64,000 bases of DNA from a bacterium (GCA_036796695.1 DAIRCK010000001.1:128145-192144); one strand, 5' to 3'. Positions 2,961-24,517 are shown, numbered from the stretch's first letter. The notes: generated by a model from the sequence alone, not told the origin. Program-made: numbers and translations.

Positions 2961-4463
2961 ATGGAAAGCATCATAAGAAAGATTGGCAGGGAACAACTTG
3001 AGATACTTTTTGAAATGACAAGTTCCCTGAGCGCAACCCTGGAACTCTCAAAAATTCTTGATATTATCATTGAGAGTGCCAAAAACCTTTTGAAGGCAGA
3101 GGCAAGTTCTCTTTTATTGCTTGATGAGACAACAAATGAATTATATTTTGCAAGCGTTACTGGAGAGGTTTCAGAACGATTAAAAAATCTGACTGTTCCA
3201 CTTGACAAAGGGATTGCAGGTGCCTGTGTGCGCGAGGGCAAACCAAAGATTGTCAATGATACGACCAAAGATAAGGATTTCTATGGTAAGATTGATAAAT
3301 CGACCGGTTTTATCACCCGTTCTATAATTGCTGCCCCTTTGAAGATTACAGGAAAAACGATCGGAGTGGTTGAGGTATTGAACAAAAAAGATGCAAGCGA
3401 ATGGACCGAAGAAGATAAGGACCTTTTATTACTCATTGCTTATCAGGCAGCACAGGTAATACAGAATGCCCAGGTTCATTTAAAAATCAATGAATATAAA
3501 GACCTGCTCAGAAATGAGATTGATTCAAGATACGCACTCATTGGAAGGAGTGAGCAGTTTAAGAATGTGCTGAACCTTGCTGAAAAGGTTGCCCAGAGCA
3601 ATGCCTCGGTTCTCATCCTTGGTGAGAATGGAACTGGTAAGGAATTGCTTGCAAGATACATCCATCGCCTGAGTCCAAGAAGGGAAAAACCATTCATTGC
3701 GGTAAGTTGCGCAGCAATTCCTGCGACCCTGCTTGAAAGTGAATTGTTCGGTTATGAAAAGGGTGCATTCACTGGTGCCCTTACCCAGCACAAAGGCAGA
3801 TTTGAACTTGCGCATCAGGGCACAATATTTCTGGACGAGATTGGCGATTTATTACCTGAAACCCAGAGCAAATTGTTAAGGGTATTACAGGAAAAAGAGT
3901 TTGAAAGGCTTGGCGGAACAAAGACCATAAAAGTGGATGTCCGCGTGATTGCCGCAACCAATCAAAACCTTGAAGAAAAGATGAAACAGAAACTGTTTCG
4001 TGAAGACCTGTTTTATCGTCTGAATGTCTTTCCGATATATGTTCCTCCTCTGCGCGACCGTAAGGATGATATTATTATCCTTGCCGAACATTTTCTTGAT
4101 TACTATGCAAAACAGATGAATAAAGATATCAAAAAATTCTCAGACGAAGTCATTGAAAGATTAATACAATACCCCTGGCCTGGAAATGTCCGGGAACTCC
4201 AGAATGTCATTGAAAGGGCAGTGGTCTTGACCAATACTGATACAATAAAATCAGAGGCATTGATGCTTCCTTCAGAACCGATAGAATTACCGATGACCTA
4301 TGATAAAAGTTTAAAAGAGGCGGTAGAGGAATTTAAAATGAAGTATATAAAAGAAGTGATAAAGAAATGTGGGGGTAATCAAAGAAAGGCAAGCAAGATA
4401 TTAAAAATACAACCTACATACTTATCAAGGCTCTTGCACAAAAAGAATCACATTTTAGAATAA
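2961..4463 (+). CDS. Sigma-54-dependent Fis-family transcriptional activator with an N-terminal GAF sensor domain.
   Basis: GAF region, then an AAA+ sigma-54 activator core (Walker A 'GENGTGKE', GAFTGA motif 'GYEKGAFTGA', 'ESELFGYEKGAFTG'), then a C-terminal Fis-type HTH. Confidence 0.85.
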   Translation: MESIIRKIGREQLEILFEMTSSLSATLELSKILDIIIESAKNLLKAEASSLLLLDETTNELYFASVTGEVSERLKNLTVPLDKGIAGACVREGKPKIVNDTTKDKDFYGKIDKSTGFITRSIIAAPLKITGKTIGVVEVLNKKDASEWTEEDKDLLLLIAYQAAQVIQNAQVHLKINEYKDLLRNEIDSRYALIGRSEQFKNVLNLAEKVAQSNASVLILGENGTGKELLARYIHRLSPRREKPFIAVSCAAIPATLLESELFGYEKGAFTGALTQHKGRFELAHQGTIFLDEIGDLLPETQSKLLRVLQEKEFERLGGTKTIKVDVRVIAATNQNLEEKMKQKLFREDLFYRLNVFPIYVPPLRDRKDDIIILAEHFLDYYAKQMNKDIKKFSDEVIERLIQYPWPGNVRELQNVIERAVVLTNTDTIKSEALMLPSEPIELPMTYDKSLKEAVEEFKMKYIKEVIKKCGGNQRKASKILKIQPTYLSRLLHKKNHILE

Positions 4464-4532: not shown

Positions 4533-6467
4533 TTATTCTGCAATCAGGATAAACTTTCCTGTCTTCAAACCATCTGAACTTTTATACATATAGAAATAAA
4601 CTCCGGATTTAACCTTGATATTTGTCTGGTCAGTTCCGTTCCACACAACCTTCTGCGTCAATCCTTCAAATCTCTTTACCAACCTTCCACTGGCATCAAA
4701 TACATTCAAAACTGCTTCAGGTTTTGGTTTCTGGGCAAATTCAAATTCAATCAGACCTTTTGCTGGATTCTGCAATAACTTAATCACTGGTTGAGTCTGA
4801 TGGCTTTTTTCAGATTCAACAATTCCCACAGGGTTATTCCCAATCGTGAGTGAAAAATTTATCCCCTGAGAGATTGTGCAGGTATCGTCCTTGAAGATCA
4901 AATTCAATCTCATTTGCTTGACTGAACCAGGTGTGGCATTCCGACTGCAACGAATAAGAAATTTTGAGGCACTGTTATTACCAGTACTCTTACGATATAT
5001 CTTGGGAAATGTCGCACTTCCACCCTGCACAACAATCTGGGTATCAAGGGAGACAAGCGTGGCTGTGATATTATATGCAGAATCGAGGGGATGGATAGCA
5101 CGGTTCCTGATACGCATCCATAGATGGGATGTCTCATTCGGGTCAAGTTGACCGGTTCCGTTACCCAGCGCAGTATCTGCAACCACTGGTTGTAGATTAT
5201 CAAAGAATACACCCGCAATCTTGGTAAAATAGATATTTACAGGTCTGCACTGATTGATGTTATTCTGTATCACTGTGTAATTGTTATAACCATCCCAGAA
5301 ATCGGTTTGATTCGTTTCTATAGTATATGCATAGGTAACAAACTTTGGCACGCCATTATGGAGCGTATCCTTCATCTCCCACTCAATACTTCCACCATTT
5401 GCTGCGTAAAGAACCCGCACAATAGGTCCTGTGCGTGCAGCTGTATAACCATTCTTTGCCCTCATTGAATCAAGAATCTCCCACTGGGTAATTGAATCCG
5501 GAATCGGCTCAGCAGTCCCACTATAACCCCAGACACAGAGATTATATGCACCATAGGAATGATAATCAATCTGGGTTCTGATCTTTTTTGGCAAGAAGAA
5601 GTCCCTTGCATTCTGGGTTTCAGGTTCACTGAAGCGCGAAGGACCCCGATATGTCTCACTCGTTACAGTAGGGCTTGAACCATAATTATCATAACCCCAT
5701 TTATAACCATAATTCCGGTTCAAATCAACACCCGCAGTAGAAGAACTCTGACCTGAATAAAAATGTCTGTTCTTACGGATATTTGCTGTTGCACCACCTG
5801 AATCTGAATTATATCTGTAACCATCAGGATTCATCACCGGAATAAAATATATCTCACGGTTATTCACAAACCAGGTAACCAGAGAATCTGTGCCATAGTT
5901 GGTCAAAAGATATTTAATATAATCAATACAGAGCGTAGTTCCCATCGGTTCCCTGGCATGGGTTGCGCCATTGAAGCAGACTGCAGGTTCCATCTCATCA
6001 ACGATTGGATTATCTGAAATCTTGAATGCGACCATTGGCAAACCCTGATAGGAATTGCCCGCACTATAGAATCTACTGATTTGTGGGAATGAATTTGCCA
6101 GGGTCTGCAATGTATCACGCATCTCCCAGTAGGTGTAGAAATAACCAAAATCGCGTAAAATCTGCGGGTCTCTGCTGCCTGCCATTTCATAAAACTTTTC
6201 TGCAATGTCTTCATAGGTGATCCTGGTCTTGAATCCTAATGCCTGAATCTTCTCAAGTTGTTCTTTGGTGGTATTTATCACGAGATAGTATTCACCATTC
6301 TCAGATTCCTGGGCCGTGCATATATCCAGTTCTCCAAAGAGTTCACCCATCTTAGAAAACAATTCATCCGCATCATTGAAATATACCCATACCTCCATCT
6401 TATTCCCGGAAAAGCCGAGCGAAAAAATGAGCACTATTAGACTTAAGCATCGTAATATTGGCTTCAT
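4533..6467 (-). CDS. M14-family zinc carboxypeptidase with a signal peptide and a T9SS C-terminal sorting domain.
   Basis: M14 motifs ('CFNGATHAREPMG', 'NPDGY'). The C-terminal ~80 aa match a T9SS type-A CTD ('...GVYFYMYKSSDGLKTGKFILI'). N-terminal signal peptide. Confidence 0.8.
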   Translation of the reverse strand: MKPILRCLSLIVLIFSLGFSGNKMEVWVYFNDADELFSKMGELFGELDICTAQESENGEYYLVINTTKEQLEKIQALGFKTRITYEDIAEKFYEMAGSRDPQILRDFGYFYTYWEMRDTLQTLANSFPQISRFYSAGNSYQGLPMVAFKISDNPIVDEMEPAVCFNGATHAREPMGTTLCIDYIKYLLTNYGTDSLVTWFVNNREIYFIPVMNPDGYRYNSDSGGATANIRKNRHFYSGQSSSTAGVDLNRNYGYKWGYDNYGSSPTVTSETYRGPSRFSEPETQNARDFFLPKKIRTQIDYHSYGAYNLCVWGYSGTAEPIPDSITQWEILDSMRAKNGYTAARTGPIVRVLYAANGGSIEWEMKDTLHNGVPKFVTYAYTIETNQTDFWDGYNNYTVIQNNINQCRPVNIYFTKIAGVFFDNLQPVVADTALGNGTGQLDPNETSHLWMRIRNRAIHPLDSAYNITATLVSLDTQIVVQGGSATFPKIYRKSTGNNSASKFLIRCSRNATPGSVKQMRLNLIFKDDTCTISQGINFSLTIGNNPVGIVESEKSHQTQPVIKLLQNPAKGLIEFEFAQKPKPEAVLNVFDASGRLVKRFEGLTQKVVWNGTDQTNIKVKSGVYFYMYKSSDGLKTGKFILIAE

Positions 6468-6546: not shown

Positions 6547-9450
6547 CTATCTTATCAGGATTCCGCGTGTGTTATAGTTTTTATCCTCTATCTGGAGGCT
6601 GAAGAAGTAAACACCTGCTGGAACCTTTCTTCCAAGTTCATCATCGCCATTCCATCTTATATTATAAACTCCAGGTGTCTTTGTCTCATTTATCAGATTA
6701 CGAACGAGTTGTCCAAGGGTGTTATAAACCTTCAGGCTGACCTTTGCTTTATTATCAACTGTGTAATAGATATTCACAGAATTATGACTTGGATTCGGTG
6801 CAAGACTTATCCGTTTTGTGCCCGGGTCAACATAATCGCTGAATTCTTCAACCGCTATCCAGTTTAACATCCTCGGTTGCTTGGTTGTAAATTTAATTGC
6901 TCTGCCGCTTGTAAGTGGTGCCGCACCTGTATCATACATCTTGTTGAAGAGATAGCAAATACCATACTTCTTCAGGGAATCCTGTTGACCGACTGTGCAA
7001 CTTGTTGTTGGTTCGGTAACACGCTTGTACTGTATAACAATGTCGTTCTTTAGACCTGGACCAGCAGTTGTTGAATCGTAGATAATAATCTGGAAAGTAA
7101 GCCTGTTATTTGCCGAACCAGTCACTGAATCATACTGGATTATAAACCGACGATTTGTGGCATCATTATAATACCACCAGGTGCTTCCGGTAGAACCCGT
7201 ATTAAGTGTATCCCAGAATGCCGCAACCATATTTGGTGCTGAAGTCTGAGAGCCGTAATCATACACCTTAGGCAGAATGCTATTATGCTGGACTGTAAGG
7301 GTTGTATTAAGGAATGCAATCCAGCCATTGGTACAGACAGAGAGACTGTCGGTTGTCGTATATCCAAGCCTTCGGGCATAATGTCTGATTGCAAAAGGAG
7401 AACGAAGGCGGCGTGTAACCATCGGTCCACCAGCACCAATTGATGTTCCTGGTCCACCATAATTCGGATTTATCTCTATCCAATTATATACAGGCCTTTC
7501 AGTATAGAAACTATCAGTATTATCAATGACAAAATAGCCTGCACTATCAGGACCACAAACCGAACCCATCCTCAATTGATAATAGAGTTTTCTTGTATAA
7601 GTGCCAGAGGTCAGTTCAAGTTCAAATGGAACAAGTGTGCCGATTTGGATAAGGGTATCTGCCTGGAGCACAAATGGGTCTGCACCATTATGGCCCTTTG
7701 CCTTTGGATTAATGGTTCCAAAGGTCGCAGTGGAATCAAGGATTGTGATACGGGGACTGGTTGTCCGTAATTTACCGGTCACATTTGTAGCAGCCGCAGT
7801 GCCAAGGTTAATGATTGTATCCACAAGGGTAATCCGTTCTGATGGGTCAAAGAAGCCATTGTTATTGCCATTGGTTGGCGGGTCAAGGACAACAGTCCCG
7901 ATTTCAGCCAATCTCAAATCCGGAAGTGAACCAGATGCAGGTGTGAAATCAATTGCCCTCTTTGCCCGAATCCTTCCTGCACCATACATTGTATCCTTAC
8001 CCGCAGTCCCCATGTCAAGGGCAGTGAATTGCATAATACTATCAATCTGGGCAACAGTGAGATTGGGATTTTTGGAAAGCATCAAGGCAGCAAGACCAGC
8101 ACAATGGGGTGTTGCCATAGAGGTACCACTCATTGTCACATAACCACTATTATTACTATAGCTACAAGAAACTATATTTACTCCAGGTGCGGCAATATCG
8201 GGTTTTAATATTCCAGATCCAGGTCTGAATGGATAATCCCAATACCAGGGTGCATTTTCCCAGCAGGATGGACCACAAGAAGAGAAATATGCAAGGGTAT
8301 CGGGTTGAGTCGTTGCTGCAACAGAAATAGCACCAGCAAGCCTTCCCTGGACCTCTGATGGATGGTGCCAGGGTGGTGGCACATCACCAGGACACCGAAG
8401 ATTATAAGGGACTGGACAATAAGAACCTGCAGAACCACGTTCATTCCCTGCGGCAATAAAATACGGAATACCTGCAAGGGCGACATTGGTTACTGACTTA
8501 CGCCACAAACTCCTTCTTGGTGTCCAGGCAACATACCAGCCTAAGGACATTGAAACAACATCAGCACCGTGCGTTGGTGATAGTGGTGGTGATATGACAA
8601 ATTGCATCGCATCAAGGACATTTTTCTCTGAAATCGTATCTGGCATCGGATAGGCGATCGAGGTCCTTACCCTTATTGCCATTATTGAACACTGGGGTGC
8701 AACACCACAGGAATCACCAGCAGACCCATCAGAGGCGATTGTGCCTGCACAGTGTGTTCCGTGGCCATTAGCATCAATCGGATTATTATTATTCTGCTCA
8801 AAATTCCAGCCATAATACGGATAATTCGGGTCAGTCCACATATGGTTTCTTAAATCAAGGTGATTGTAATTAACACCGGTATCAATTACACCTACGATAA
8901 CTCCCTGGCCTTTATACCCTGCTGCCCAGCAGGAGTCTGCAGCAATTTTAACAATATTCCACTCTTTGGTCCTGTAATCAAGGACATCGACTGGAACAGG
9001 ATTTCCAACGGTCAAGAGAATATTTTCACTTGTAATGTATGGATAGGTAATGAATGCTACATCTTTTTGATTTGCAATCTCATTGATTATATCTGGTGTT
9101 GCCTTGCAATATATTGCATTGATAATCCACAAAGACTGGATATCAGAAACCCTGTTTGACTGGGTCTGGAGGCTGAGGTAATTTATGATTGGTGCCTGGG
9201 TCCTTGCGGAAAGTTCTTTTAGATAATTCACCACAGGATACCTTTGTTCACGACGGGGTAAGTCTGCAACAAGATTGCGCAGATAATCCTCGTCTGATTG
9301 TTCGTTTAAAACAATCAAGACTTCTATCTGGTCATTACCCTCGGTCCGGGCAATGACATCTTCGAGTTGTGGGTCAATTAATGCCTTTGCCTCAGCAAGA
9401 CCCACAAGGGAGATCGCTAAGAGACATATTGTTATATTTTTCATTTTCAT
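6547..9450 (-). CDS. S8 subtilisin-family serine peptidase with a signal peptide and a T9SS C-terminal sorting domain.
   Basis: Catalytic triad motifs 'VGVIDTGV' (Asp), 'HGTHCAGTIAS' (His) and 'GTSMATPHCAGLAAL' (Ser). C-terminal T9SS CTD ('GVYFFSLQIEDKNYNTRGILI'). Start is set at the MKMKN signal-peptide Met, which has a GGAAAGGAG RBS upstream. Confidence 0.85.
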   Translation of the reverse strand: MKMKNITICLLAISLVGLAEAKALIDPQLEDVIARTEGNDQIEVLIVLNEQSDEDYLRNLVADLPRREQRYPVVNYLKELSARTQAPIINYLSLQTQSNRVSDIQSLWIINAIYCKATPDIINEIANQKDVAFITYPYITSENILLTVGNPVPVDVLDYRTKEWNIVKIAADSCWAAGYKGQGVIVGVIDTGVNYNHLDLRNHMWTDPNYPYYGWNFEQNNNNPIDANGHGTHCAGTIASDGSAGDSCGVAPQCSIMAIRVRTSIAYPMPDTISEKNVLDAMQFVISPPLSPTHGADVVSMSLGWYVAWTPRRSLWRKSVTNVALAGIPYFIAAGNERGSAGSYCPVPYNLRCPGDVPPPWHHPSEVQGRLAGAISVAATTQPDTLAYFSSCGPSCWENAPWYWDYPFRPGSGILKPDIAAPGVNIVSCSYSNNSGYVTMSGTSMATPHCAGLAALMLSKNPNLTVAQIDSIMQFTALDMGTAGKDTMYGAGRIRAKRAIDFTPASGSLPDLRLAEIGTVVLDPPTNGNNNGFFDPSERITLVDTIINLGTAAATNVTGKLRTTSPRITILDSTATFGTINPKAKGHNGADPFVLQADTLIQIGTLVPFELELTSGTYTRKLYYQLRMGSVCGPDSAGYFVIDNTDSFYTERPVYNWIEINPNYGGPGTSIGAGGPMVTRRLRSPFAIRHYARRLGYTTTDSLSVCTNGWIAFLNTTLTVQHNSILPKVYDYGSQTSAPNMVAAFWDTLNTGSTGSTWWYYNDATNRRFIIQYDSVTGSANNRLTFQIIIYDSTTAGPGLKNDIVIQYKRVTEPTTSCTVGQQDSLKKYGICYLFNKMYDTGAAPLTSGRAIKFTTKQPRMLNWIAVEEFSDYVDPGTKRISLAPNPSHNSVNIYYTVDNKAKVSLKVYNTLGQLVRNLINETKTPGVYNIRWNGDDELGRKVPAGVYFFSLQIEDKNYNTRGILIR

Positions 9451-9608
9451 CTCCTTTCCTGATTGCTCACATATAGAACCCTCTTCTCTCCCTTTCTCAT
9501 ATTTTTTTATTTTTTGCACCACCCCCTTTCACACTTAAGTCCTATTACTATATTATATTTAGAAATTTTATTTAGTCAAGGGTAAAAACACATTTATAAA
9601 TTGTGGCA

Positions 9609-11587: not shown

Positions 11588-12370
11588 TCAATTTTTCTTG
11601 TTCAGGACTTCCATCATCTGCCTGTGTATATAGCCATTCGTTCCCAGAACCTCTTTACCATATATATCAAATGGTTTACCTTTAAAATCGGTTATCTTCC
11701 CGCCTGCCTCTTTTAAAATTAGATAACCTGCTGCCTGATCCCAGGGTGAGAGTTTGATCTCCCAGTAACCATCAAATCTTCCACAGGCTGTATAACATAG
11801 ATCGAGTGCTGCTGAACCAAGCCTTCTCACTGCCTGGGCAGTTACACAGAATCGTGCAAAATAATCAAGATTATTCTCTTTGCTCACCCGGATATCATAA
11901 GGGAATCCAGTCACAAGTAGGCTCTTACCGAGTTTCTTTGTCTTTGATACATATATTTTTTTTCCATTTAAAAATGAACCCCTGCCTTTGATTGCTGAAA
12001 ATAACTCCTTTCTTGATGGGTCATAAACAATACCGAGCACAATCTCAGTTTCTACCTCAAGTCCAATAGATATTGCCCATATTGGTAGATTATGGGCAAA
12101 ATTTGTCGTTCCATCAAGTGGATCAAGAAGCCATTTTATTTTTTTGTGGGTATCATAACTGATATTTTCTTCACTTAAAATACCGTAATCCGGAAACTCT
12201 TTTTTCAAATAATTCACAATATTCTTCTGGGCAATATTATCAAACTGTGTGACAAGATTTACTGCACCCTTGTAAGATATTCTTTTTTTCCGATTTGAAA
12301 GATGATAGATGTAATCTCCAGTCTCTACAATAATCTTTATTGTCTTTACAAGTATTTTATTCAGGTCCAT
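11588..12370 (-). CDS. suhB: Inositol monophosphatase-family protein (SuhB/ImpA-like).
   Basis: 'WLLDPLDGTTNFAHNLPIWAISIGL' and 'WDQAAG' metal-binding motifs. Confidence 0.8.
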   Translation of the reverse strand: MDLNKILVKTIKIIVETGDYIYHLSNRKKRISYKGAVNLVTQFDNIAQKNIVNYLKKEFPDYGILSEENISYDTHKKIKWLLDPLDGTTNFAHNLPIWAISIGLEVETEIVLGIVYDPSRKELFSAIKGRGSFLNGKKIYVSKTKKLGKSLLVTGFPYDIRVSKENNLDYFARFCVTAQAVRRLGSAALDLCYTACGRFDGYWEIKLSPWDQAAGYLILKEAGGKITDFKGKPFDIYGKEVLGTNGYIHRQMMEVLNKKN

Positions 12371-13229
12371 TTTTGTTCTGCTTTTTTAAAATCCTTTCCG
12401 GCTCAATTATCGGCTTTATCTTTTCTGCTTCTTCAAAAGCAAGTTTTCCATATTTTGAGTCTTTATCAATCTTTATACATTTTTCAAAATCTTCAACTGC
12501 CTTGCGAAATTCGTATCTTTTTAATTCCGCAAGTCCTAAATAATAGTATGCTTCCTGGAGATTGGGTCCAAGTTTTAACGCCTCTTCAAAAAATCTTACG
12601 GCATCTGTAACCATTCCCCGCTCATAATATACCAATCCTAAATAAAAATTGGCATAGAGCCTTGCCATTCTATCTTTGGTCTGTTTTGTGACCTTGCTCA
12701 AATGCTCAATCGCCTCACCCCAGATTCCCTTTTTATAACATATAAATCCAAGATTGTTTAAGGCAAATGGATTCCCTGGTTCAATCAACAAAACCTTCTG
12801 GAAATAGAGCATAGCCTCGTCATAGAGTTCTTTATTCATCAGCACCAGGCCACTCAATCCAAGTGCCCGGGTGTTTTTCGGGTCAATTTCAAGCGCCTTT
12901 TTCAAAAAACCCATTGCCTCATCATAATCTTCCATAACAATCAGATTCCAGGCACGGTCAAGGAGTGTAGCAAGGTCAAGTTCTGGTGAGGTGCGTGCCT
13001 TTATAAATGAATAGAATCTATCCATATCTACCTTACTCGTCTTACGGTTCCGGAAATTCTGGGCAATCTGTCTCAATTCATCCTGTGCCTGATTTAGATA
13101 TTTAATATTATTAGCGATTTCAATATACACATTTTTTATCATATCTTTTATCATCTGCTCTTTATCCGGGGTGTATTCCTTTATCAGATTTTTCAATTCT
13201 TCAAGTTTCTTCTTAATTTCATCCATCAT
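12357..13229 (-). CDS. TPR-repeat protein.
   Basis: Multiple 34-aa TPR units (W-LG-Y...A...F...A). Overlaps suhB by 14 nt and cheB by 4 nt, indicating an operon. Confidence 0.65.
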   Translation of the reverse strand: MMDEIKKKLEELKNLIKEYTPDKEQMIKDMIKNVYIEIANNIKYLNQAQDELRQIAQNFRNRKTSKVDMDRFYSFIKARTSPELDLATLLDRAWNLIVMEDYDEAMGFLKKALEIDPKNTRALGLSGLVLMNKELYDEAMLYFQKVLLIEPGNPFALNNLGFICYKKGIWGEAIEHLSKVTKQTKDRMARLYANFYLGLVYYERGMVTDAVRFFEEALKLGPNLQEAYYYLGLAELKRYEFRKAVEDFEKCIKIDKDSKYGKLAFEEAEKIKPIIEPERILKKQNKNGPE

Positions 13230-14236
13230 AATACCGCCATTTCAGTCAATTTTTTTAAAATGAGATGCAGGGGTAAAACATAATCAACAGCACCTGCATC
13301 AATTGCAGATTGAGGCATACTTGCGATCGTTGCTTCTGCAGGTTCCTGGGCAATAGTTATACCACCAAATTGTTTTATCTTCAATAACCCCTTTGTTCCA
13401 TCATGCCCCATTCCGGTGAGAACAATTCCCATTGCCTTATCTTTAAATACATCCGCCATTGATTCAAAAAGATAATCCGCACAGGGTTTTAATCCATACC
13501 TTGGAGATTCATCAGTTAATATAACTGATTTACCAGAAGGATGTATCTTTATATGACTACCCCCGGGTGCAATCAAAACTGTGTCGGGCAATATCTGATC
13601 GTTTTGTGCTGCTTCTTTAATATTAAGAATTGATTTTTCATTTAGGTGCAGTGCCAGACTCGCAGTAAAGAATTTTGGCATATGCTGGACAACGATAATT
13701 TTATAACCTGAATCTTTTCTTAAAGATGAGAGTAAAAAATTCAAAGCCTTCACACCACCTGTGGACGATGCAATTCCGATTATAAAATCAACTTTTTTTA
13801 AACCAGGGGTTACTTGAGGAATGGATACAAATGAACGGAGATTTGCCTGTGCAACATATCTCAATTTTTGGATCAATTCTTCTTTAAAATCATAAAGATC
13901 AATAGAGATAGGACCTGATGGTTTTGGGAAAAAATCGACTGCACCGAGATTAAGGGAATTTATGGTAACTTCTGCGCCTTTGTGTGTATGTGCAGAGAGC
14001 ATCAGAACCGGTGTCGGTCTAATCGACATAATCCTTTGAAGAAATACAAGGCCATTCTCTCCGGGCAGTTCATAATCCAGGGTAATGACATCGGGTTTGG
14101 ATTTATTAAACTTTGCCCATGCCTCATCAACATTTCTTGCATATCCACAGATTTCAAATTCACCAGAAGATTGAATAATATCTCCTATCACCCTTTGCAT
14201 CAATACAGAATCTTCAACAATCAATACCTTCTTCAT
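13226..14236 (-). CDS. cheB: Chemotaxis response regulator protein-glutamate methylesterase.
   Basis: N-terminal REC domain ('VLIVEDSVLMQRVI...DVITLDYELPGENGL') and a C-terminal CheB methylesterase domain ('IGIASSTGG', 'HMPKFFT', 'VLTGMGHDG'). Confidence 0.85.
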   Translation of the reverse strand: MKKVLIVEDSVLMQRVIGDIIQSSGEFEICGYARNVDEAWAKFNKSKPDVITLDYELPGENGLVFLQRIMSIRPTPVLMLSAHTHKGAEVTINSLNLGAVDFFPKPSGPISIDLYDFKEELIQKLRYVAQANLRSFVSIPQVTPGLKKVDFIIGIASSTGGVKALNFLLSSLRKDSGYKIIVVQHMPKFFTASLALHLNEKSILNIKEAAQNDQILPDTVLIAPGGSHIKIHPSGKSVILTDESPRYGLKPCADYLFESMADVFKDKAMGIVLTGMGHDGTKGLLKIKQFGGITIAQEPAEATIASMPQSAIDAGAVDYVLPLHLILKKLTEMAVL

Positions 14237-14239
14237 ACC

Positions 14240-14701
14240 CTATATCTTCTTTTCCCCATGGCGATAAGATTTTATCAAAACCTCACCGGTGCTGACATCA
14301 AAGAAAATTGTTCTTCCCCAGTTTCCGTGCACATCCTCACCAACAATTGGTATTGAATGTCTTCGCAGTTGCTCCTTTGTTTCAATGACATTCCTTTCAC
14401 CGATTGAAGTTTGTAATAATTCACCAAACATTGTTGAACCACCTGCTATCTTTGCAACAATCTGATTTTGTTCAATACCCATCTCAGAAAAATGTCTGAG
14501 TAATTCCTCAATCGCACCCTTAGGATGTTTGAAACTACCATCTGCACCATGGGGCAAAAGAATGTGTGCTAATCCACCGGTGCGGGTTTTTGGTTCATAT
14601 AGTGCAAGAACCACACAGGAACCAACACCATATGCAGAAAGTATTGCCTCTCCCCTGACAACCTTTACTTCACCAATACCAACCTTGATTTCAGTCGCCA
14701 T
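14240..14701 (-). CDS. cheD: Chemoreceptor glutamine deamidase.
   Basis: 'LSAYGVGSCVVLALYEPKTRTGGLAHILLP' is the CheD signature, with the catalytic Cys in the GSC motif. Confidence 0.8.
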   Translation of the reverse strand: MATEIKVGIGEVKVVRGEAILSAYGVGSCVVLALYEPKTRTGGLAHILLPHGADGSFKHPKGAIEELLRHFSEMGIEQNQIVAKIAGGSTMFGELLQTSIGERNVIETKEQLRRHSIPIVGEDVHGNWGRTIFFDVSTGEVLIKSYRHGEKKI

Positions 14702-14724: not shown

Positions 14725-15510
14725 TCATAAGGCAATCTTCTTGTACACACGTTCTGTCCTATTCACAATATTAAAAAATTTTGCCTCAGGAATACCAAGG
14801 AGCAATTCAACCTTACCGATAACGAGATAACCACCGGGTCTGAGAGTTTCGTAAAACCTGTGGACAAGTTCAGATTGAGCATCCCTGCTCATATAGATCA
14901 AGACATTACGGCACATAATCAGATCACAGGGTCCGTGCGGAAAATTATCAAACAAATCAAGATGGAAGAACTTTACAATTGATTTTATATTATCCTTAAT
15001 TCTATAATCTCCATTATATTTTACAAAATATTTTTTTAGATATTCTGATGGTGTATATTGGAATGCGGTTATTGGATAGATCCCCTGTTCAGCCTTATTT
15101 AGCGCATCATCATCAATATCGGTTGCATAAATTATCGTCTTTTCTATAATAGCTGTTTCAGAGGCCATCATTGCCAGAGAATATGCCTCTTCACCCTGGG
15201 CACAACCCGCACTCCATAAAATCACTTTTTCATTTTTAGCAAATTCAGGCAAAATATCCGTCTTTATATACTCAAATGTCTCAAAGTTTCTAAAAAAATA
15301 TGAAAGGTTTATCGTAATGGTACTGAGTAGTTTTTTAAGTTCTTCAGGATTTTTATTGAGATAGTCATAATACTGAGAAAATTCATTCAATCCAAGTGCA
15401 CGCATCCTCACCCTTATTCGTCTGGTCAGAGGTCTTTCTTTATAACTGTGACATTTAAAACCTGTCTTCTCCTCAATTAATTTTATCAAATTCTGGAAAT
15501 TATGTTCCAC
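14725..15510 (-). CDS. cheR: Chemotaxis protein-glutamate O-methyltransferase.
   Basis: CheR N-terminal helical domain ('TGFKCHSYKERPLTRRI', 'FFRNFETFE') and SAM-methyltransferase domain ('ILWSAGCAQGEEAYSLAM', 'IMCRNVLIY'). Confidence 0.85.
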   Translation of the reverse strand: MEHNFQNLIKLIEEKTGFKCHSYKERPLTRRIRVRMRALGLNEFSQYYDYLNKNPEELKKLLSTITINLSYFFRNFETFEYIKTDILPEFAKNEKVILWSAGCAQGEEAYSLAMMASETAIIEKTIIYATDIDDDALNKAEQGIYPITAFQYTPSEYLKKYFVKYNGDYRIKDNIKSIVKFFHLDLFDNFPHGPCDLIMCRNVLIYMSRDAQSELVHRFYETLRPGGYLVIGKVELLLGIPEAKFFNIVNRTERVYKKIAL

Positions 15511-17086
15511 GAGACTTTTTCAGCAATTCAATGTTCTGGGTAATTATGGTATTGGTGGGGTTTAAATCTTTTGCCTTTTCCCAGTTATTTAAGGCACCAT
15601 CAGCATCACCGAGTCTCATCAATATATTTCCTAATTTAAATAATACTTCCCAGTCCTTTTCTTCTTCTGGAATTTTCTCGTAGAACTCCTTTGCCGCGCC
15701 AAGAATCTGGGATTCATAATAGAAATCAGCAAGGTTTCTGCAGATCTTATTATTCTGTGGTTCATCGTTTATTGCCTGACGATAAAGACGCTCCGCTTCT
15801 TCAGGTAAATCGAGTGATTCATAAATGACTGCAAGATTATTTTTAAAAAGGGCAAGGCGTGGAAATTTATCAATACATTCCTTGAGAAAATCAACCGCTT
15901 TCTTTACATCATTTAATTTTATGTATATTAAAGGCAGATAAATGTAAGGGGTGATAAATTCCGGTTTTTTTTCAATTACTCTTTTAAATAAACTCTGTGC
16001 CCCATCTAAATCATTCTGGTTGAACAAGACAATACCTAAATTACAATTTATCCGCGGATCATCCGGCGACAACTCAAGGGCTTGATTAAGATAGATCTTT
16101 GCCTGTTCAAAAATTCCCAATTTATTATACAAATAACCTAAATTGTTTAATATGGCTGGATTTTTTTCTACTTCTCCTGCCTTTTTCAAAAACTCCTCAG
16201 CCTTTTCAGGATAATTCCTTCTCAATTCAATGAGACCACAATACATTAAAGACTCTGCGTTATCAGGCGCTATCTCCAATACCTTCCTGAATTCCCGTTC
16301 GGCTTCATCATACATCCCGGTTTTGAAAAAGGCGAATCCAAGATTTTTATATTCATTTACATCACCAATTGCCTTTTTTGCAATCTCGGTCTTTTCGGGT
16401 TTTTCGACAATACCGGCTGAAATCAAAGCATATATTGTGCGACAGGTCTCAAAAAAATCAAATTCGGATAACTTCAAAATATCATCAATGGTGCGATTTC
16501 CATCAATCAATTGAAGTATCTTCAATTCTTCTTCAGTCAGTGGAATCTCGCTGTAATCCTTTTTTACTGCAAGAATTGACTCAAATGAAGGTAATCTTTT
16601 TTCAAGTTTACGCCATTCATCAATTCGCCTCGCACCTTCAAGTAAGAGTTCCTGGGGTGATAACTGCACAAGAAATTCTTCGCTTCCGGGTAATAAATCA
16701 GCCTCAAAATTGAAATATCCTGTCTCCCAGGTAAGCATCGTAAATATCGTTTCTGCTATTTGATTTGCAAGTTCTTTCTCAAGGATTTCTTTTGTAATAT
16801 ATCCATTTTCAACCAGGATTTCTCCTATCCTCTTATTTGTCTTCTTCTGTTCTTCAAGTGCTGATTTCAAAATAGATTCTTCAATCACCTGTTTGCGTAA
16901 AAGAATATCACCCAGGCGGTCCTTTCTATTCAATAATGTAGCATAGATAATCTTCCCATCTTTGATAAAGATATTCCCAAAATTCTTTCCATCAGTAACA
17001 GAAAGACAACCCGACCTCAAAGAAAAACTCAAAAGCTGAATGACATCAGGCAGGCTGGCTTCGCTTAATGAACCTTTTATAGCCAT
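15500..17086 (-). CDS. DUF4388 (PatA-N-terminal/PATAN-like) domain protein with C-terminal TPR repeats.
   Basis: The N-terminal ~100 aa ('GSLSEASLPDVIQLLSFSLRSGCLSVTDGKNFGNIFIKDGKIIYATLLNRKDRLGDILLRK') fit the DUF4388 pattern. The C-terminal half contains about 7 TPR units. Confidence 0.6.
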   Translation of the reverse strand: MAIKGSLSEASLPDVIQLLSFSLRSGCLSVTDGKNFGNIFIKDGKIIYATLLNRKDRLGDILLRKQVIEESILKSALEEQKKTNKRIGEILVENGYITKEILEKELANQIAETIFTMLTWETGYFNFEADLLPGSEEFLVQLSPQELLLEGARRIDEWRKLEKRLPSFESILAVKKDYSEIPLTEEELKILQLIDGNRTIDDILKLSEFDFFETCRTIYALISAGIVEKPEKTEIAKKAIGDVNEYKNLGFAFFKTGMYDEAEREFRKVLEIAPDNAESLMYCGLIELRRNYPEKAEEFLKKAGEVEKNPAILNNLGYLYNKLGIFEQAKIYLNQALELSPDDPRINCNLGIVLFNQNDLDGAQSLFKRVIEKKPEFITPYIYLPLIYIKLNDVKKAVDFLKECIDKFPRLALFKNNLAVIYESLDLPEEAERLYRQAINDEPQNNKICRNLADFYYESQILGAAKEFYEKIPEEEKDWEVLFKLGNILMRLGDADGALNNWEKAKDLNPTNTIITQNIELLKKSRGT

Positions 17087-18985
17087 TTATTCGCTCCTGG
17101 TCAAGGGCACATAATTTTCTTCAAGGAGTTCATCAGACATTTCCTGAATTATCAGGCGCTCTTCCTTTAATTTTTTAAACGGGGTTTCAACAGGCTGGGG
17201 TTGAGATTCTACCGCTGGTTCAATAACCTGAGTTATCTCCTCCTGTGGTTCTATTTTTGCAATAACTTTTTCTTCAATAACCGGCTGGATAACTTCTTCA
17301 CCCGGTAGTCCCAAACTTATGATTTCTTCTAATGGTTTTTCCTCAGAAGGGATCTGCGGCTTTCTTGAATCAATAATGAATGAATCGATTTCATTGAAAT
17401 TTTTGAACTGTGGTATCCCCTTTGTTTTCAGCAGATCATATTCTTCAGGAGAAATTTTTGATTTAAGATAAAGTTCGGTTATCTCCGGATCCGGCTCTTT
17501 TAAAATTACTTCTACGCCGAGTTGGAATATCATCTTTTCATTTTCATCAAGCACAATATCATCACCAAATGGTTCGGAAAAAATAAATACACCTTTTTCC
17601 TGTCTAATGTATTCAACAATATTCTCAATCACCCTGTTACGTAAGTCATTATCCAAAAGAAAAATCTTATGAAAATTATCAATCAATAAAACATCTTTTT
17701 CATCTTTTGCTTCAGGAAGATTCTGTATATCTTTTTCAAAATCCCATATCACTGGATTATATCCACGAAATCTTAAATCCTCTGAGATCGCCTGACAGAG
17801 GAATGTCTTTCCAGTCCCTGCACTGCCCAAAATTATATATGGATTGAATTCTTTGCCTAAGGAAGGAATTATTGTCTTTTCATAAAGTTCAACCGCGGTC
17901 CTGTTGCAATCGGTGATCCAGTAATTCTCAAAAAATTTCCTCTCCGCACCCTTCAATTTCTCTTTTATTGAATTCAGCAATGACTCAATTTCATCTATTT
18001 TGTCGGGTGAAAAAAGCATGGTCTCAATCTTCATTCCATCTTCAGGGAATTTTGAAACATCCAGGGCACCAAATTCTTTCTGTAATTCAATCAATCTTTC
18101 TACTTTTTTGATAAAAACATTATAGGCGCTGGCAAGTGTATCAATATCAGCATCAAGCAGTGGTTTTAATGCTGATGTATCAAAGCCCTTCATTTCCCAG
18201 ATATAAATTTTTTCTTTGTATTCTGTGCGTGGATCCTTGACCTCTGTGATCTCGGTGATTGCTTCATCCGCACTTTTTTTCAACTCCTCAACAAGAGAAG
18301 CAACCGGACTATATATACCCCGCGGATAAAATTCTTTTAATATCAAACGGATTGTATTTAAATCAAAAGTGATATTACCGAGTGATGCATAGGCAACCAA
18401 TCTATTCAACATTCCATCTATTGTTCTCAAAGAACCACCGGACAATTGAGTGAGTTCAAGGGCGATTTCGTCTGGAACAATAATTCCCCTTTCTTCAGAT
18501 TTCTTTTTTATAAACTCTACCAGTGCCATTTCACGGGGTGCCTGAAGATCACATACCAGACCACCTTCAATACGCGATATGACCTTCTGACCCAAATTCT
18601 TCAACTCACGGGGTGGTGCATTCCCGCTGAAGCATAATTGTTTATTTTTCGTGATTAAAATATCAATCATTGTAAGTATAGAATCCTGGAATTTTTCGCT
18701 AACCCGGTTTATATCATCAACAAATACCGCTGTATCAAACTGGGAATTTTTTTGCAAATATTCTTCAAATTCCTTAGGTGTAAAAATCAAAATATTTTCT
18801 TTTTTACTTAATTCAGTGTAAAGGGTCCATAAAAAATGGGTTTTACCATAACTACCTGTAGCATAAATATAAAGGGGATTGAATACTTCTCCCGGAAACT
18901 GGACAACCTTCTGGGCTGCCATAAATGCAACCTTATTTCCTTCATAAACATAAAAATTGTCAAAATTAAAATTCTTTTTAATCAT
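17087..18985 (-). CDS. Tandem DnaA/Hda-like AAA+ ATPase (two P-loop modules) with a C-terminal acidic Pro/Glu-rich low-complexity tail. It has no DnaA domain I or domain IV.
   Basis: Module 1 has 'FDNFYVYEGNKVAFMAAQ...NPLYIYATGSYGKTHFLWTL', 'VFVDDIN', 'LCFSGNAPPREL' and a sensor-2-like 'GSLRTIDGMLNRL'. Module 2 has 'NPYIILGSAGTGKTFLCQAI' and 'VLLIDNFHKI'. The tail is 'PQIPSEEKPLEEI...PQEEITQVIEPAVESQPQPVETP'. Confidence 0.6.
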   Translation of the reverse strand: MIKKNFNFDNFYVYEGNKVAFMAAQKVVQFPGEVFNPLYIYATGSYGKTHFLWTLYTELSKKENILIFTPKEFEEYLQKNSQFDTAVFVDDINRVSEKFQDSILTMIDILITKNKQLCFSGNAPPRELKNLGQKVISRIEGGLVCDLQAPREMALVEFIKKKSEERGIIVPDEIALELTQLSGGSLRTIDGMLNRLVAYASLGNITFDLNTIRLILKEFYPRGIYSPVASLVEELKKSADEAITEITEVKDPRTEYKEKIYIWEMKGFDTSALKPLLDADIDTLASAYNVFIKKVERLIELQKEFGALDVSKFPEDGMKIETMLFSPDKIDEIESLLNSIKEKLKGAERKFFENYWITDCNRTAVELYEKTIIPSLGKEFNPYIILGSAGTGKTFLCQAISEDLRFRGYNPVIWDFEKDIQNLPEAKDEKDVLLIDNFHKIFLLDNDLRNRVIENIVEYIRQEKGVFIFSEPFGDDIVLDENEKMIFQLGVEVILKEPDPEITELYLKSKISPEEYDLLKTKGIPQFKNFNEIDSFIIDSRKPQIPSEEKPLEEIISLGLPGEEVIQPVIEEKVIAKIEPQEEITQVIEPAVESQPQPVETPFKKLKEERLIIQEMSDELLEENYVPLTRSE

Positions 18986-19389
18986 ATCATCCTCAAGATA
19001 TTTTTCACATTCTTTGTAAATTCTTCGGAAGCGACCTTAACCACACCGGGTATTGTTCGATCATCAAATAATGAAACGAGCAGGTAATTCCCATCGAGTG
19101 CCACATAGTATAGACTCGCCCTGCCCCCTTCCTGTAACAATTCAAAAAAATTTTTTTCTCCTATAATATGAGCCAGTTCCATTGTAGAATTAAATATATT
19201 ACAAGTAAGGGCAGCAATGGCCAAAACATCAAAGGATCTTGTAAAACCCCGCTGAACCAAAAGGTGCCCCGAACTTGTTATCAACATTGACCATATCACA
19301 TTGGTCTGACTATAAAAATCACCCAGCAATTTTTCCAATTTCTCAATCTGGGCATCGGTTAAGGTAATCGTCGCAAAATTTCCCTTCAC
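18982..19389 (-). CDS. Roadblock/LC7 (MglB-like) domain protein.
   Basis: 135 aa with a roadblock-fold pattern ('VIWSMLITSSGHLLVQRG', 'LAIAALTCNIFNSTMELAHIIG', 'YYVALDGNYLLVSLFDD'). 4-nt overlap with the downstream ATPase gene. Confidence 0.6.
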   Translation of the reverse strand: MKGNFATITLTDAQIEKLEKLLGDFYSQTNVIWSMLITSSGHLLVQRGFTRSFDVLAIAALTCNIFNSTMELAHIIGEKNFFELLQEGGRASLYYVALDGNYLLVSLFDDRTIPGVVKVASEEFTKNVKNILRMI

Positions 19390-19436
19390 ATAAAATTATA
19401 ATAAATTTTTTTAAAAAAGTCAATACAGAATTAAGG

Positions 19437-22571: not shown

Positions 22572-23765
22572 TTGTTTATGGAATTGCTCTTTAACTTACG
22601 CAATAACCAATTGCTAAAAGAATTAAAAGAAATTGGGGTAGCATCTGAAGCATATCCAATATTTTTAAAAAAGTCTGAATATCAGATAATTAAAATTAAG
22701 AAAATTTCACCTGCCCAGGCTAATATCTTGAAACAGATTGCATTGATTTGTGGTGGTGATGTAGCGATACCAAAAGATGCATATTTTGGTTCAAAAAGAA
22801 AGAGATTTGACGTTCTTTTGTTTGCCAATTTAAGGGAAATTGAGAAAATGATAACCCGATTACAGGAACAACCATGGATGGAACAACTCAAAAATCAATT
22901 ATCTATGATAATCAATCCTGTTGAAAAACCAAGTTTAAAGATTGGAAATGAAGAAATAAGATTTGAACGAACTTATATAATGGGCATTATCAATATCAGC
23001 CCTGATTCTTTTTACAGTGGCAGTCGCTACACTACTTTATCAACGGTTAAAAAAGTAATAGAAGAGATGGAACAGGAAGGCGCAGACTTCATTGACATCG
23101 GTGCTGAATCAACCCGGCCCGGAGCAAAAATGCTTGGTGAAAAGGAAGAGATAGAAAGATTAAAATCTGTTTTGCCGGTTGTTGTCAAGTTTTCACGTGT
23201 TCCAGTTTCGGTTGACACATACAAAGTAGAAGTAGCAAAATATGCCCTGGACCAGGGAGTAAGAATAATAAATGATATATCCGGTTTTGGGTTTTATCAA
23301 CCCAACAAAAGACTTGCCCGCGTAATTGGACAATATAAGGCTTGTGTTGTTATAATGCATATTCAGGGGACCCCAAAAACGATGCAAATAAATCCTCAAT
23401 ACAAAAATCTCTTATCAGAAATCAAAAATTATCTTAAAGAAAGAATCGATTTTGCAGTTCAGAATGGGATCGATTTGAATAGGATCATCATTGATCCGGG
23501 TTTGGGATTTGGCAAAAGGTTAGAAGATAATTATGAAATAATTGAAAGACTTGCTGAACTCAAGATATTCAGGCGTCCGATCCTTGTTGGACACTCACGC
23601 AAGTCATTCATAGGCAATCCATTTAATTTACCACCTGAAGAAAGGTTAGAAGGCACCCTTGCTGTAGAGGCATTGTTGATAAAAAATGGCGCCTCGATCG
23701 TCCGTGTTCATGATGTTCTGGAAGCAAAAAAAGTTGCACAGTTGATTGACAAAATCACAAAATGA
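22572..23765 (+). CDS. folP: Dihydropteroate synthase with an N-terminal ~130-aa extension of unknown function.
   Basis: The pterin-binding DHPS core starts at 'IMGIINISPDSFYSG' and includes 'DFIDIGAESTRPGA', 'SVDTYK', 'IINDISG' and 'DPGLGFGK'. The preceding ~130 aa do not match a DHPS domain. Confidence 0.85.
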   Translation: MFMELLFNLRNNQLLKELKEIGVASEAYPIFLKKSEYQIIKIKKISPAQANILKQIALICGGDVAIPKDAYFGSKRKRFDVLLFANLREIEKMITRLQEQPWMEQLKNQLSMIINPVEKPSLKIGNEEIRFERTYIMGIINISPDSFYSGSRYTTLSTVKKVIEEMEQEGADFIDIGAESTRPGAKMLGEKEEIERLKSVLPVVVKFSRVPVSVDTYKVEVAKYALDQGVRIINDISGFGFYQPNKRLARVIGQYKACVVIMHIQGTPKTMQINPQYKNLLSEIKNYLKERIDFAVQNGIDLNRIIIDPGLGFGKRLEDNYEIIERLAELKIFRRPILVGHSRKSFIGNPFNLPPEERLEGTLAVEALLIKNGASIVRVHDVLEAKKVAQLIDKITK

Positions 23766-24517
23766 AGTTATTTGGATTTCTCAATCTCAACACCCTTGAT
23801 CTCATTGACATTGTAATAGTTGCAATTTTAATATATCAGTTTCTGAGGTTTATAAAAGGGACCAAGGCAACCCCAATTTTGTTCGGGATTTTAACTATAT
23901 TTGTAGTATCATTCATCGCACGCTGGTTTAACCTCAGAGCCTTGGCCTGGATAATGAATTCCATCCTTGCAGTCTGGGTTGTTGCCTTTGTCATACTCTT
24001 CCAGCCAGAGATAAGAAACGCCCTGGCATTCATTGGTAGACAACGTCCCCTGCGATTTTTTTTCAAAGTTGAGCCTTTTCCAACTGTAAGTGAAATAATT
24101 GGTGCAATAAAAAAACTTTCTGAACAGCGGCATGGTGCACTAATTGTCATTCAAAGGAATGATAGTCTTAGCGATATAATTGATTCCGGTGTGCGCATTG
24201 ATGCCTTAGTAAATTCCATTTTGATTCAAAGTCTTTTCTTCCCGGATAATCCATTACACGATGGAGCCTGTATTATTCAGGGCGATAAAATTATTGCTGC
24301 TTCCTGTGTCTTACCATTGAGCGAAAATCCTGATCTGGGCGGTAAATTTGGTTTGAGACACCGTGCTGCCCTGGGAATTGCCGAGCATACAGATGCATTC
24401 TGCATCGTAGTTTCTGAAGAAACCGGGAGAATCTCCTTTGCATACAAAGGTAAACTCATCACACGGGTCTCCGCAGATGCCCTGGCAAAAACATTAAAGA
24501 AGGTGATTAAAGAATAG
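23762..24517 (+). CDS. cdaA: Diadenylate cyclase (c-di-AMP synthase, CdaA/DacA type).
   Basis: Three N-terminal TM helices and a DAC domain ('HGALIVIQ', 'LHDGACIIQGDKIIAASCVLPLS', 'GLRHRAALGIAEHTDAFCIVVSEETGRIS'). 4-nt overlap with folP. Confidence 0.85.
   Translation: MKLFGFLNLNTLDLIDIVIVAILIYQFLRFIKGTKATPILFGILTIFVVSFIARWFNLRALAWIMNSILAVWVVAFVILFQPEIRNALAFIGRQRPLRFFFKVEPFPTVSEIIGAIKKLSEQRHGALIVIQRNDSLSDIIDSGVRIDALVNSILIQSLFFPDNPLHDGACIIQGDKIIAASCVLPLSENPDLGGKFGLRHRAALGIAEHTDAFCIVVSEETGRISFAYKGKLITRVSADALAKTLKKVIKE

Follow-up and report, generated by a model that had tools for sequence, protein, structure and literature searches.

What is the role of a protein that carries two ATPase modules of the replication-initiator type, has no initiator DNA-binding domain and is encoded among signaling genes? 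This question is raised by a gene located at positions 17087..18985 on the minus strand of a 64,000-nucleotide stretch of bacterial DNA (GCA_036796695.1 DAIRCK010000001.1:128145-192144; G+C ~37%), which is referred to as the window and from whose first letter all positions are counted. According to the list of open reading frames (ORFs), the gene, hereafter the target, encodes 632 aa and ends with a stop codon at 17087-17089; unless a strand is given, the features described below are on the minus strand as well. A preliminary description of the window had presented the target as two DnaA-type AAA+ modules in tandem followed by an acidic tail, fitting neither the replication-initiation proteins DnaA and Hda nor known chemotaxis components. 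To our knowledge, replication initiation and helicase loading (DnaA, Hda, DnaC/IstB) are the only processes for which AAA+ modules of the DnaA type have been described. The reading that we favor, to which we assign an even chance of being right, is that the target works, in an ATP-dependent way, as a switch or scaffold in an MglAB/PATAN/Che polarity-motility module and not as a replication factor.

The target is made of known building blocks in a new architecture, together with a new domain and a new gene association, although the signaling module around it is of a type already known. Its order, from the N-terminus, is module 1 (a DnaA-type AAA+ domain with its lid, residues 1-221, 18323..18985), a conserved segment (residues 222-246, 18248..18322), an all-helical domain of ~100 aa, which we named the X-domain (residues ~247-345, 17951..18247), module 2 (a degenerate DnaA-type AAA+ domain, residues 346-545, 17351..17950) and a disordered acidic tail (residues 546-632, 17090..17350). 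DnaA matches were obtained for both halves of the ORF, in agreement with the tandem arrangement described previously, and the Walker motifs reported at that time are all present. The protein starts with MIKKNFNFDNF, that is, 7 residues ahead of the F-D-N-F lead-in of DnaA domain III, which had rightly been described as retained. A Pfam search of the target gave no match to DnaA domain I (PF11638), which serves DnaB loading and self-interaction, and none, at E up to 1, to the DnaA-box-binding helix-turn-helix of DnaA domain IV (PF08299), as expected from the preliminary description; genuine DnaA proteins recovered by the same homologue search have both domains.

The homologue search recovered ~100 full-length clusters with 34-97% identity to the target. 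The target family consists of ~100 protein clusters and 41 reference genomes, all of them WOR-3, Stahlbacteria or "TA06", and the closest homologues (to 97% identity) are nearly all labeled candidate division WOR-3, so that a WOR-3 bacterium is very probably the source of the window. The names carried in the databases are generic and domain-based ('DnaA/Hda family protein', 'DnaA ATPase domain-containing protein' or 'hypothetical'), and none of the curated NCBIfam cutoffs is reached by the family: the target scores 153.2 bits against the TIGR00362 (DnaA) cutoff of 343.9, and 82.5 bits, under half of the cutoff of 194.8, with TIGR03420 (Hda). Neither a placement of the two halves in an unrelated P-loop family nor a common annotated family of known function was found; on sequence grounds, the target is clearly one of the AAA+ proteins of the DnaA clade and yet falls short of membership in both the DnaA and the Hda families.

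Module 1 was defined using TIGR00362, the PDB, Foldseek and alignment. It matches Pfam Bac_DnaA (PF00308) at 5e-27 and TIGR00362 DnaA at 1e-44, the latter over profile positions 104-339, which correspond to domain III. The best PDB sequence match is Bacillus subtilis DnaA (8btg, 3e-23) and the best fold match found by Foldseek is 8bv3 (TM 0.82, root mean square deviation 2.9 A); structures of Hda are good fold matches as well (TM 0.72-0.77). The AlphaFold2 (AF2) model of the module has a predicted local distance difference test (pLDDT) value of ~90. All the catalytic elements can be located: the Walker A motif GSYGKT (residues 44-49, 18839-18856), the Walker B motif VFVDD (residues 87-91, 18713-18727), the Box VII arginine finger in ISRIEGG (18560-18580) and sensor 2 in SLRTIDG (18413-18433). 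In the family alignment of 101 sequences, on which all counts of residue conservation are based, K48, D90 and D91 are found in 101/101 members, R138 of Box VII in 97/101 and R187 of sensor 2 in 96/101.

Module 2 was defined using hhalign, a family profile and Bac_DnaA. Taken alone, the window's sequence of this module has a generic P-loop look and is weakly DnaA-like. When a profile of 19 members was used, the five best PDB matches were all DnaA (6e-22 to 5e-18), with DnaC at 3e-7 and Hda at 2e-3, and Bac_DnaA was matched by module 2 in 19/19 members. The DnaC/IstB helicase-loader clade was considered and rejected for module 2, since the DnaC/DnaI/IstB models give matches of 17-23 bits only, against the far stronger DnaA matches. 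By hhalign, module 2 aligns with DnaA domain III at E 1.3e-26, and the two modules align with each other over 186 columns (probability 99.5%, E 3.5e-23). A recent internal duplication was not established, each module being nearer to canonical DnaA domain III (scores of 310.6 and 170.3) than to the other module (147.5).

The nucleotide-binding motifs of module 2 are retained as GTGKT for Walker A (residues 390-394, 17804-17818) and LLIDNF for Walker B (residues 433-438, 17672-17689), the latter with D-N in place of the double aspartate; at position 393, 92 members have K and 9 have R, D436 is found in 100/101 and N437 in 95/101. The arginine-finger position, 487, is occupied by Phe in the target (in IFQLG, 17516-17530), and by F in 86 members and L in 14. 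According to the alignment, the sensor-2 arginine is absent from module 2. The state of these two arginines, by which the preliminary description proposed to recognize the catalytic site, differs between the modules: module 1 has both and module 2 has neither. Given the loss of arginine finger and sensor 2 from module 2 and the D-N form of its Walker B, catalysis is predicted to take place in module 1.

A comparison with known proteins shows how far the likeness extends. Both modules share with DnaA domain III the fold, the sequence clade, the F-[DE]-N-[FY] lead-in and the NP...GxGKTH form of Walker A, and module 1 additionally shares the DD Walker B, the SRxxxG Box VII arginine and the sensor-2 arginine. 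Unlike DnaA, the target is without domains I, II and IV, carries two copies of domain III per chain, has gained the X-domain and the acidic tail, and is encoded in a signaling operon and not beside dnaN. Moreover, in alignments with the B. subtilis and Escherichia coli proteins, the region of the initiator-specific two-helix insert, between Walker A and Walker B, is ~15 aa shorter in both modules than in DnaA, and the shortened part includes the aligned position of E. coli V211, which we take to have a role in single-strand binding. In the AF2 model, as distinct from a solved structure, a single helix (70-79) is predicted for this region in module 1, whereas module 2 has no helix there. The target is derived from DnaA domain III; since domains I and IV are absent, the insert region is shortened and the scores are far under the DnaA and Hda cutoffs, we propose that it does not act as an initiator. 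Hda resembles the target in being a DnaA derivative with domain III only, in its short insert region, in the arginine finger (as in module 1) and in its Walker B, which in E. coli Hda is ID-N as in module 2. In contrast to the target, Hda is a single module of ~230 aa and bears an N-terminal beta-clamp motif (E. coli ...AQLSLPLYLP) that is absent here.

Two modules in one chain, one of them degenerate, are also known from the type II AAA+ proteins (NSF, p97 and ClpB-type), members of the classic clade that assemble into closed hexamers. The target resembles them in that one of its two modules is without catalytic residues, a likeness of architecture only: the target modules are of the DnaA/initiator clade, and the Foldseek matches to ClpA, ClpC and p97 are weak (TM 0.2-0.3). 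By analogy, the arrangement suggests a division of labor between a catalytic and a regulatory or assembly module.

The X-domain, sited between the modules, had been overlooked in the preliminary description. It was recognized by conservation, AF2 modeling and profile search, and on this basis we consider it a newly defined helical domain. The core reads EYKEKIYIWEMKGFDTS (YIWEMKGFD at 18179-18205), and RLIELQKEF and MLFSPD come after it. The domain is among the most conserved parts of the target, with W263, G267 and Y288 invariant. When modeled alone by AF2, it is all-helical with pLDDT >90 and a predicted template modeling score (pTM) of 0.70. No Pfam match was obtained for the X-domain, and no significant PDB match was found by sequence (noise level) or by fold. 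A helical domain of ~100 aa with a conserved Trp and tandem copies called to mind a spectrin-like repeat, a candidate that found no support when Foldseek of the confident model against the PDB gave a best E of ~4.

A profile search with the X-domain over 1.84 billion representatives returned 275 proteins; the best matches are giants in which the domain is repeated in tandem as many as 25 times. The named ones are hypothetical proteins of Thermoplasmata archaea, with 10-25 copies. In one Thermoplasmata archaeon (GCA_038851035.1, L061:1231-10547), the archaellin and FlaC/D/E genes are immediately preceded by a run of three genes, which encode a KaiC/ArlH-type ATPase fused to ~10 X-domain copies (1588 aa), a protein of 11 X-domain copies (1237 aa) and a second KaiC-type ATPase. 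No Pfam family was matched by the repeat regions of this trio, and its repeat proteins may be an undescribed scaffold associated with the archaellum. This proximity to archaellin and FlaC/D/E genes is an association of the X-domain with motility that supports the switch or scaffold reading. The bacterial matches outside WOR-3 include proteins of DnaA-III/X/DnaA-III architecture and one with DnaA-III and X only; a homologue search with the single-module relative P0162 shows this form to be rare.

The segment that precedes the X-domain was defined by alignment and AF2 and has the consensus GIYSPVSSLLEELKKNAxEV. Within the WOR-3 family, P227, V228, S230, L231, E234, K236, K237 and A239 are each conserved in at least 90% of members, and the pLDDT of the segment is 41-46 in the full-length AF2 model. 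Such near-invariance together with low model confidence is typical of binding motifs, which makes the segment a candidate partner-binding motif. The segment is not present in non-WOR-3 relatives such as P0162.

The tail was delimited by composition and AF2 pLDDT. The previous account of an acidic, Pro/Glu-rich and disordered tail holds: Glu makes up 23% and Pro 12% of the residues, the net charge is -12 and the pLDDT is <50. The periodicity claimed for it does not, since PxxE is only slightly overrepresented (6 occurrences, where shuffled sequences give 2.4; p ~0.013), QxxP shows no enrichment and the spacing of Pro is irregular. The tail had also been regarded as a low-complexity tract, an account that is correct as to acidity and disorder and incomplete in that two conserved linear motifs are present. 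The first is LGLPGEE (17294-17314); among the 100 members used for the counts of tail motifs, LG[LIVM]PGE is found in 72. The second is the C-terminal peptide EERLIIQEMSDELLEENY (17111-17164), whose consensus is ...[RK]F[IL]Ix[ED]IxxEL[IL]E[ED]N[YF]-COOH. The exact C-terminal end E[ED]N[YFW]-COOH is found in 71 of the 100, while 7 extra residues follow the peptide in the window's clade.

This peptide is kept in the WOR-3 clade without Che genes (...ELIEEKF) and in the non-WOR-3 relatives (...LMDEY, ...IVEDY), always beside the TPR partner gene described below. In the non-WOR-3 relative P0158 (865 aa), the C-terminal ~140 residues consist of near-perfect tandem repeats (EEEVAPPEQVG[VI]EELPAPAEEE...) that precede ...LMDEY-COOH; this shows expansion of repeats to be a mode by which the spacer evolves, with the terminal peptide retained. 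From its sequence, the tail is best described as a variable spacer that carries, at the C-terminus, a conserved peptide for docking. Peptides of this kind at the end of a flexible tail are known from Hsp70/Hsp90, whose EEVD binds TPR domains, and from methyl-accepting chemotaxis proteins (MCPs), whose NWETF binds CheR/CheB. Like these, the target has a variable disordered spacer and a conserved C-terminal peptide of acidic and aromatic character, and both TPR and CheR/CheB genes adjoin it; unlike these, the motif ELxE[EDN][YF] does not conform to EEVD or to xWxxF and, given the 7 residues after the motif in the window's clade, a free carboxylate is not universal. Conservation of the peptide follows the PATAN/TPR gene rather than cheR and cheB, so the peptide is likely a TPR ligand, and most plausibly it binds the TPR domain of the adjacent PATAN/TPR protein. 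Its use as a CheR/CheB tether is disfavored, as it persists in the clade without Che genes.

The genes that adjoin the target are the second source of evidence. On the minus strand of the window, def, fmt and rsmB are followed by the string mglB-like gene, target, PATAN/MshEN-like/TPR gene, cheR, cheD, cheB, a TPR gene and an inositol monophosphatase (IMPase) gene, with gene junctions that overlap or abut. Directly upstream of the target, 18982..19389 encodes a 135-aa MglB homologue of the Roadblock/LC7 fold, whose TGA stop overlaps the target ATG by 4 nt (ATGA), as read directly from the sequence. The profile of this MglB family matches the Myxococcus xanthus MglB structures 6h5b, 6izw and 6hjm at 4e-18 over the full length, and the homologue itself matches NF052242 at 1e-11; by these sequence comparisons it is firmly a true MglB homologue. 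Directly after the TAA of the target comes the ATG of a 528-aa protein (15500..17086) with a PATAN domain (PatA_N/DUF4388), an MshEN-like insert and TPR. It matches DUF4388 (PF14332) at 1.8e-34 and several TPR families. Its PATAN insert (residues 57-109, 16760-16918), with RLGDILL...RIGEILV repeats, matches NF053729, an MshEN-related motif that binds cyclic di-GMP (c-di-GMP), at 5e-16. In view of this insert, the adaptor encoded beside the target may be a c-di-GMP receptor.

Synteny was compared in 40 WOR-3, Stahlbacteria and "TA06" loci, including five complete chromosomes. The order mglB-like/target/PATAN-TPR is kept in 38/40 loci, down to 34% identity, and the other two (L032 and L052) have little upstream sequence; the PATAN/TPR gene is present in every locus with downstream sequence. 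The genes upstream of this core vary: def-fmt-rsmB is found in the window's clade and DHH-mglA in 16/40 loci, with mglA directly upstream of the mglB-like gene. After the PATAN gene, cheR-cheD-cheB follows in ~27/40 WOR-3 loci and in two non-WOR-3 loci, and one WOR-3 clade has lost the trio; the IMPase gene follows in most loci, and an orthologue of the TPR protein is found in L059 (3e-63). In the non-WOR-3 relatives, full-length PATAN/TPR orthologues (4e-115 and 3e-105) adjoin and are followed by cheR-cheD-cheB. Additionally, one non-WOR-3 relative lies within a cluster of cheY, cheA, cheC, TPR, PATAN and three Roadblock-type genes, the last of which is an orthologue of the MglB-like gene.

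The preliminary description had placed the target in a signaling operon. The neighbors are indeed of the signaling type, and the near-invariant partners are the MglB homologue and the PATAN/TPR protein, not the Che genes. The Che trio is frequent, and one WOR-3 clade has lost it. The Che genes as defining context were downgraded, being absent in some WOR-3 clades, and then partly reinstated, as the trio stands beside non-WOR-3 relatives. An adjacent MglB homologue and a PATAN protein in the operon, which characterize an MglA/MglB-PATAN module, were both found. As to a Che pathway, CheR, CheD and CheB are encoded in the window without a co-operonic MCP/CheA/CheW core, and this, together with the failure of the target to qualify as DnaA or Hda, bears out the earlier view that it fits neither group of proteins. 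The target cluster, with its MglB homologue, often MglA, its PATAN protein and its Che enzymes, has the set of parts that governs pilus polarity and reversals in the described systems of Myxococcus (MglA/MglB with the Frz chemosensory system) and of the cyanobacterial PATAN pilus regulators PixG and PixE; these have neither a DnaA-like ATPase nor the X-domain. Compared with the PixG/PixE type, PATAN is here fused to TPR and not to a receiver domain, and there is no local MCP, CheA or CheW.

The switch or scaffold reading was drawn from the pairing of an intact with a degenerate site, the lack of a DNA-recognition domain, the motility-tied X-domain, the tail peptide and the coupled polarity/motility neighbors. 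From these data we infer oligomerization, partner contacts (tail with TPR, MglB with the ATPase, and self-association) and a cellular output, as follows. The module would consist of (MglA)-MglB, the target ATPase, a c-di-GMP-type PATAN/TPR adaptor and, usually, CheR/CheD/CheB. Module 1 would bind and hydrolyze ATP and provide the Box VII R138 in trans, so that ATP would drive a head-to-tail association of the target, as in DnaA and Hda. Module 2 would bind or sense nucleotide and hydrolyze it poorly; as it could accept an arginine and not donate one, it would be a regulatory or 'capping' half. The outcome would be an asymmetric two-site switch, comparable to other two-module AAA+ proteins with one degenerate ring. 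The X-domain and the tail motifs would be protein-docking elements that recruit partners, and the C-terminal ...ELxE[EDN][YF]-COOH peptide, on its flexible acidic spacer, would dock on the TPR domain of the PATAN/TPR neighbor. The translationally coupled MglB homologue would bind or regulate the target ATPase, or tie the target to MglA. As output, the PATAN domain would probably mediate control over the polarity of type IV pili.

Published work is consistent with such an output. PATAN binds the pilus motor proteins PilB1 and PilC (bioRxiv 10.1101/2021.06.11.447907), mglA/mglB genes regularly adjoin PATAN genes (PMC4316618), and the only cultured WOR-3 strain is described as a piliated rod, with flagella not mentioned (PMC12285271). 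A literature search in open-access text found no DnaA-like ATPase linked to MglB, PATAN, Roadblock, chemosensory, motility or polarity clusters. If the switch or scaffold reading is true, cell polarity or pilus control would make use of a replication-initiator fold co-opted as a nucleotide switch or scaffold, and MglAB-type systems would gain a new core component. A two-module DnaA derivative conserved phylum-wide, with relatives elsewhere, is locked into an MglB/PATAN-TPR/Che operon. The X-domain, which occurs in these ATPases in bacteria and in giant repeat proteins of archaellum loci in archaea, offers a testable handle on unknown proteins of motility apparatuses, and the cultured WOR-3 strain makes experiments increasingly possible.

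Several observations weigh against the preferred reading. Both modules have their nearest relatives among true DnaA proteins, and the arginine finger that is conserved in module 1 serves Hda as well, in its action on DnaA-ATP (RIDA). No mglA, pilus, MCP, cheA or cheW gene is found in the 64-kb window. In 8 loci, which belong to one WOR-3 clade, the mglB-like gene is immediately preceded by parA-parB, on the same strand. Finally, the full-length AF2 model of the target has a pTM of 0.39, and the geometry between its domains is unreliable. As a separate observation on the parA-parB arrangement, the loci L037, L039-L041 and L043-L045 (a WOR-3 clade with 34-39% identity) have parA-parB upstream and are without cheR/D/B.

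Some of these points would be expected if the target were an Hda-type regulator of the replication cycle, an explanation that we consider unlikely. The arginine finger of module 1 would then stimulate ATP hydrolysis by DnaA, or the protein would cap DnaA filaments, and initiation or segregation would be coupled to MglB/PATAN polarity signals. In addition to the parA-parB linkage, such a role would suit the closeness of both modules to DnaA domain III, nearer than to any other family and than to each other, the conservation of the arginine finger and of sensor 2 in module 1, the Hda-like ID-N Walker B of module 2 and the fold matches to Hda. It is opposed by the absence of an N-terminal clamp-binding motif like the QLSLPL of Hda, by the absence of the DnaA domain I that would make DnaA-DnaA contacts and by the low score with the Hda model. 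Moreover, the near-invariant neighbors are all of the signaling or motility type, the X-domain is tied to archaellum loci and not to replication loci, and the ParAB linkage is limited to one clade.

The trio of CheR, CheD and CheB raises another explanation, which we judge very unlikely: that the Glu-rich target is a substrate or tether for these orphan enzymes, in the manner of a cytoplasmic MCP with a recruiting C-terminal aromatic peptide (compare NWETF on Tar and Tsr). It would account for the presence of the trio after the module in the ~27 WOR-3 and the 2 non-WOR-3 loci mentioned above, and for the long flexible acidic spacer that ends in an aromatic C-terminal peptide. Over the 746 kb of flanks from 42 related loci, probes for MCP, CheA and CheW turned up only a single MCP-like ORF and a single CheA, and in 41/42 loci no MCP, CheA or CheW gene lies within ~10 kb of the CheR-CheD-CheB trio; MCP genes may, however, lie elsewhere in the genome. 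The orthologues in L035 and L036, a small clade, end in ...E[VT]WEEY-COOH, like the xWxxF pentapeptide by which MCPs tether CheR/CheB, whereas in most members the Trp of the xWxxF consensus is missing. The C-terminal peptide is, in addition, equally conserved in the WOR-3 clade that is without CheR/D/B, and no similarity to an MCP signaling domain was detected in the target. We note separately that the only MCP-like ORF seen near any family member is in L035.

An extension that joins this explanation to the polarity module can be imagined, and we regard it as highly improbable. Here the DnaA-derived ATPase would be the missing 'receptor' of the pathway, a cytoplasmic scaffold that self-assembles in an ATP-dependent way and is methylated, demethylated and deamidated by the adjacent orphan CheR, CheB and CheD; its assembly would be read by MglB/MglA and PATAN/TPR to set pilus polarity, and the X-domain would be a docking module for motility apparatuses, shared with the proteins of the archaellum loci. 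If true, chemosensory adaptation would act on a non-MCP substrate built from a replication-initiator fold.

Lastly, a STAND-like or AAA+ NTPase of an anti-phage defense or conflict system, standing beside signaling genes by chance, is hardly credible and was rejected: the weak matches of module 2 to nSTAND3 (1e-8), nSTAND_NTPase5 and PADLOC mad8 (3e-6) are confined to the P-loop region and are far weaker than those to DnaA, no effector domains are present, the MglB-like neighbor has no PADLOC match and the PATAN/TPR neighbor has weak ones in its TPR region only, and the stable, vertical-looking synteny across the phylum, among housekeeping genes, is unlike that of a defense island.

As regards the further genes of the operon, those assigned by Pfam to the receptor-modification enzymes are located at 14725-15510 (CheR), 14240-14701 (CheD) and 13226-14236 (CheB). 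They are followed by two conserved neighbors, also assigned by Pfam, the TPR protein (12357-13229) and the inositol monophosphatase (11588-12370), each with an overlapping gene end. At the other side, in the 47-nt gap before the mglB-like gene, we found a sigma-70-like sequence, TTGACT-17-TATAAT (19395..19423), which agrees with the consensus at 11/12 positions and was identified by consensus match only. The site is a possible 5' boundary of the module. From the end of its -10 element to the GTG start of the mglB-like gene the distance is 6 nt, which, if the promoter is functional, would imply that the mglB-like transcript is leaderless or nearly so.

The rest of the window is occupied by housekeeping genes, among which a few others were observed. 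Two ORFs of 550 aa (41964-43616, minus strand) and 640 aa (50556-52478, plus strand) gave no Pfam match at E <=1e-5. An M14 carboxypeptidase (4533-6467, minus strand) and an S8 subtilase (6547-9522, minus strand) have C-terminal sorting domains of the type IX secretion system (Por_Secre_tail/CHU_C), so to judge from these domains the organism probably has this system, which in Bacteroidota is linked to gliding motility. A CdaA-type diadenylate cyclase (DAC with a CdaA_N membrane domain) is encoded at 23762-24517 on the plus strand, which places cyclic di-AMP signaling close to the module. A GAF-domain sigma-54 enhancer-binding protein (GAF, Sigma54_activat and HTH_8), unrelated to the finding on the target, is encoded at 2961-4463 on the plus strand.

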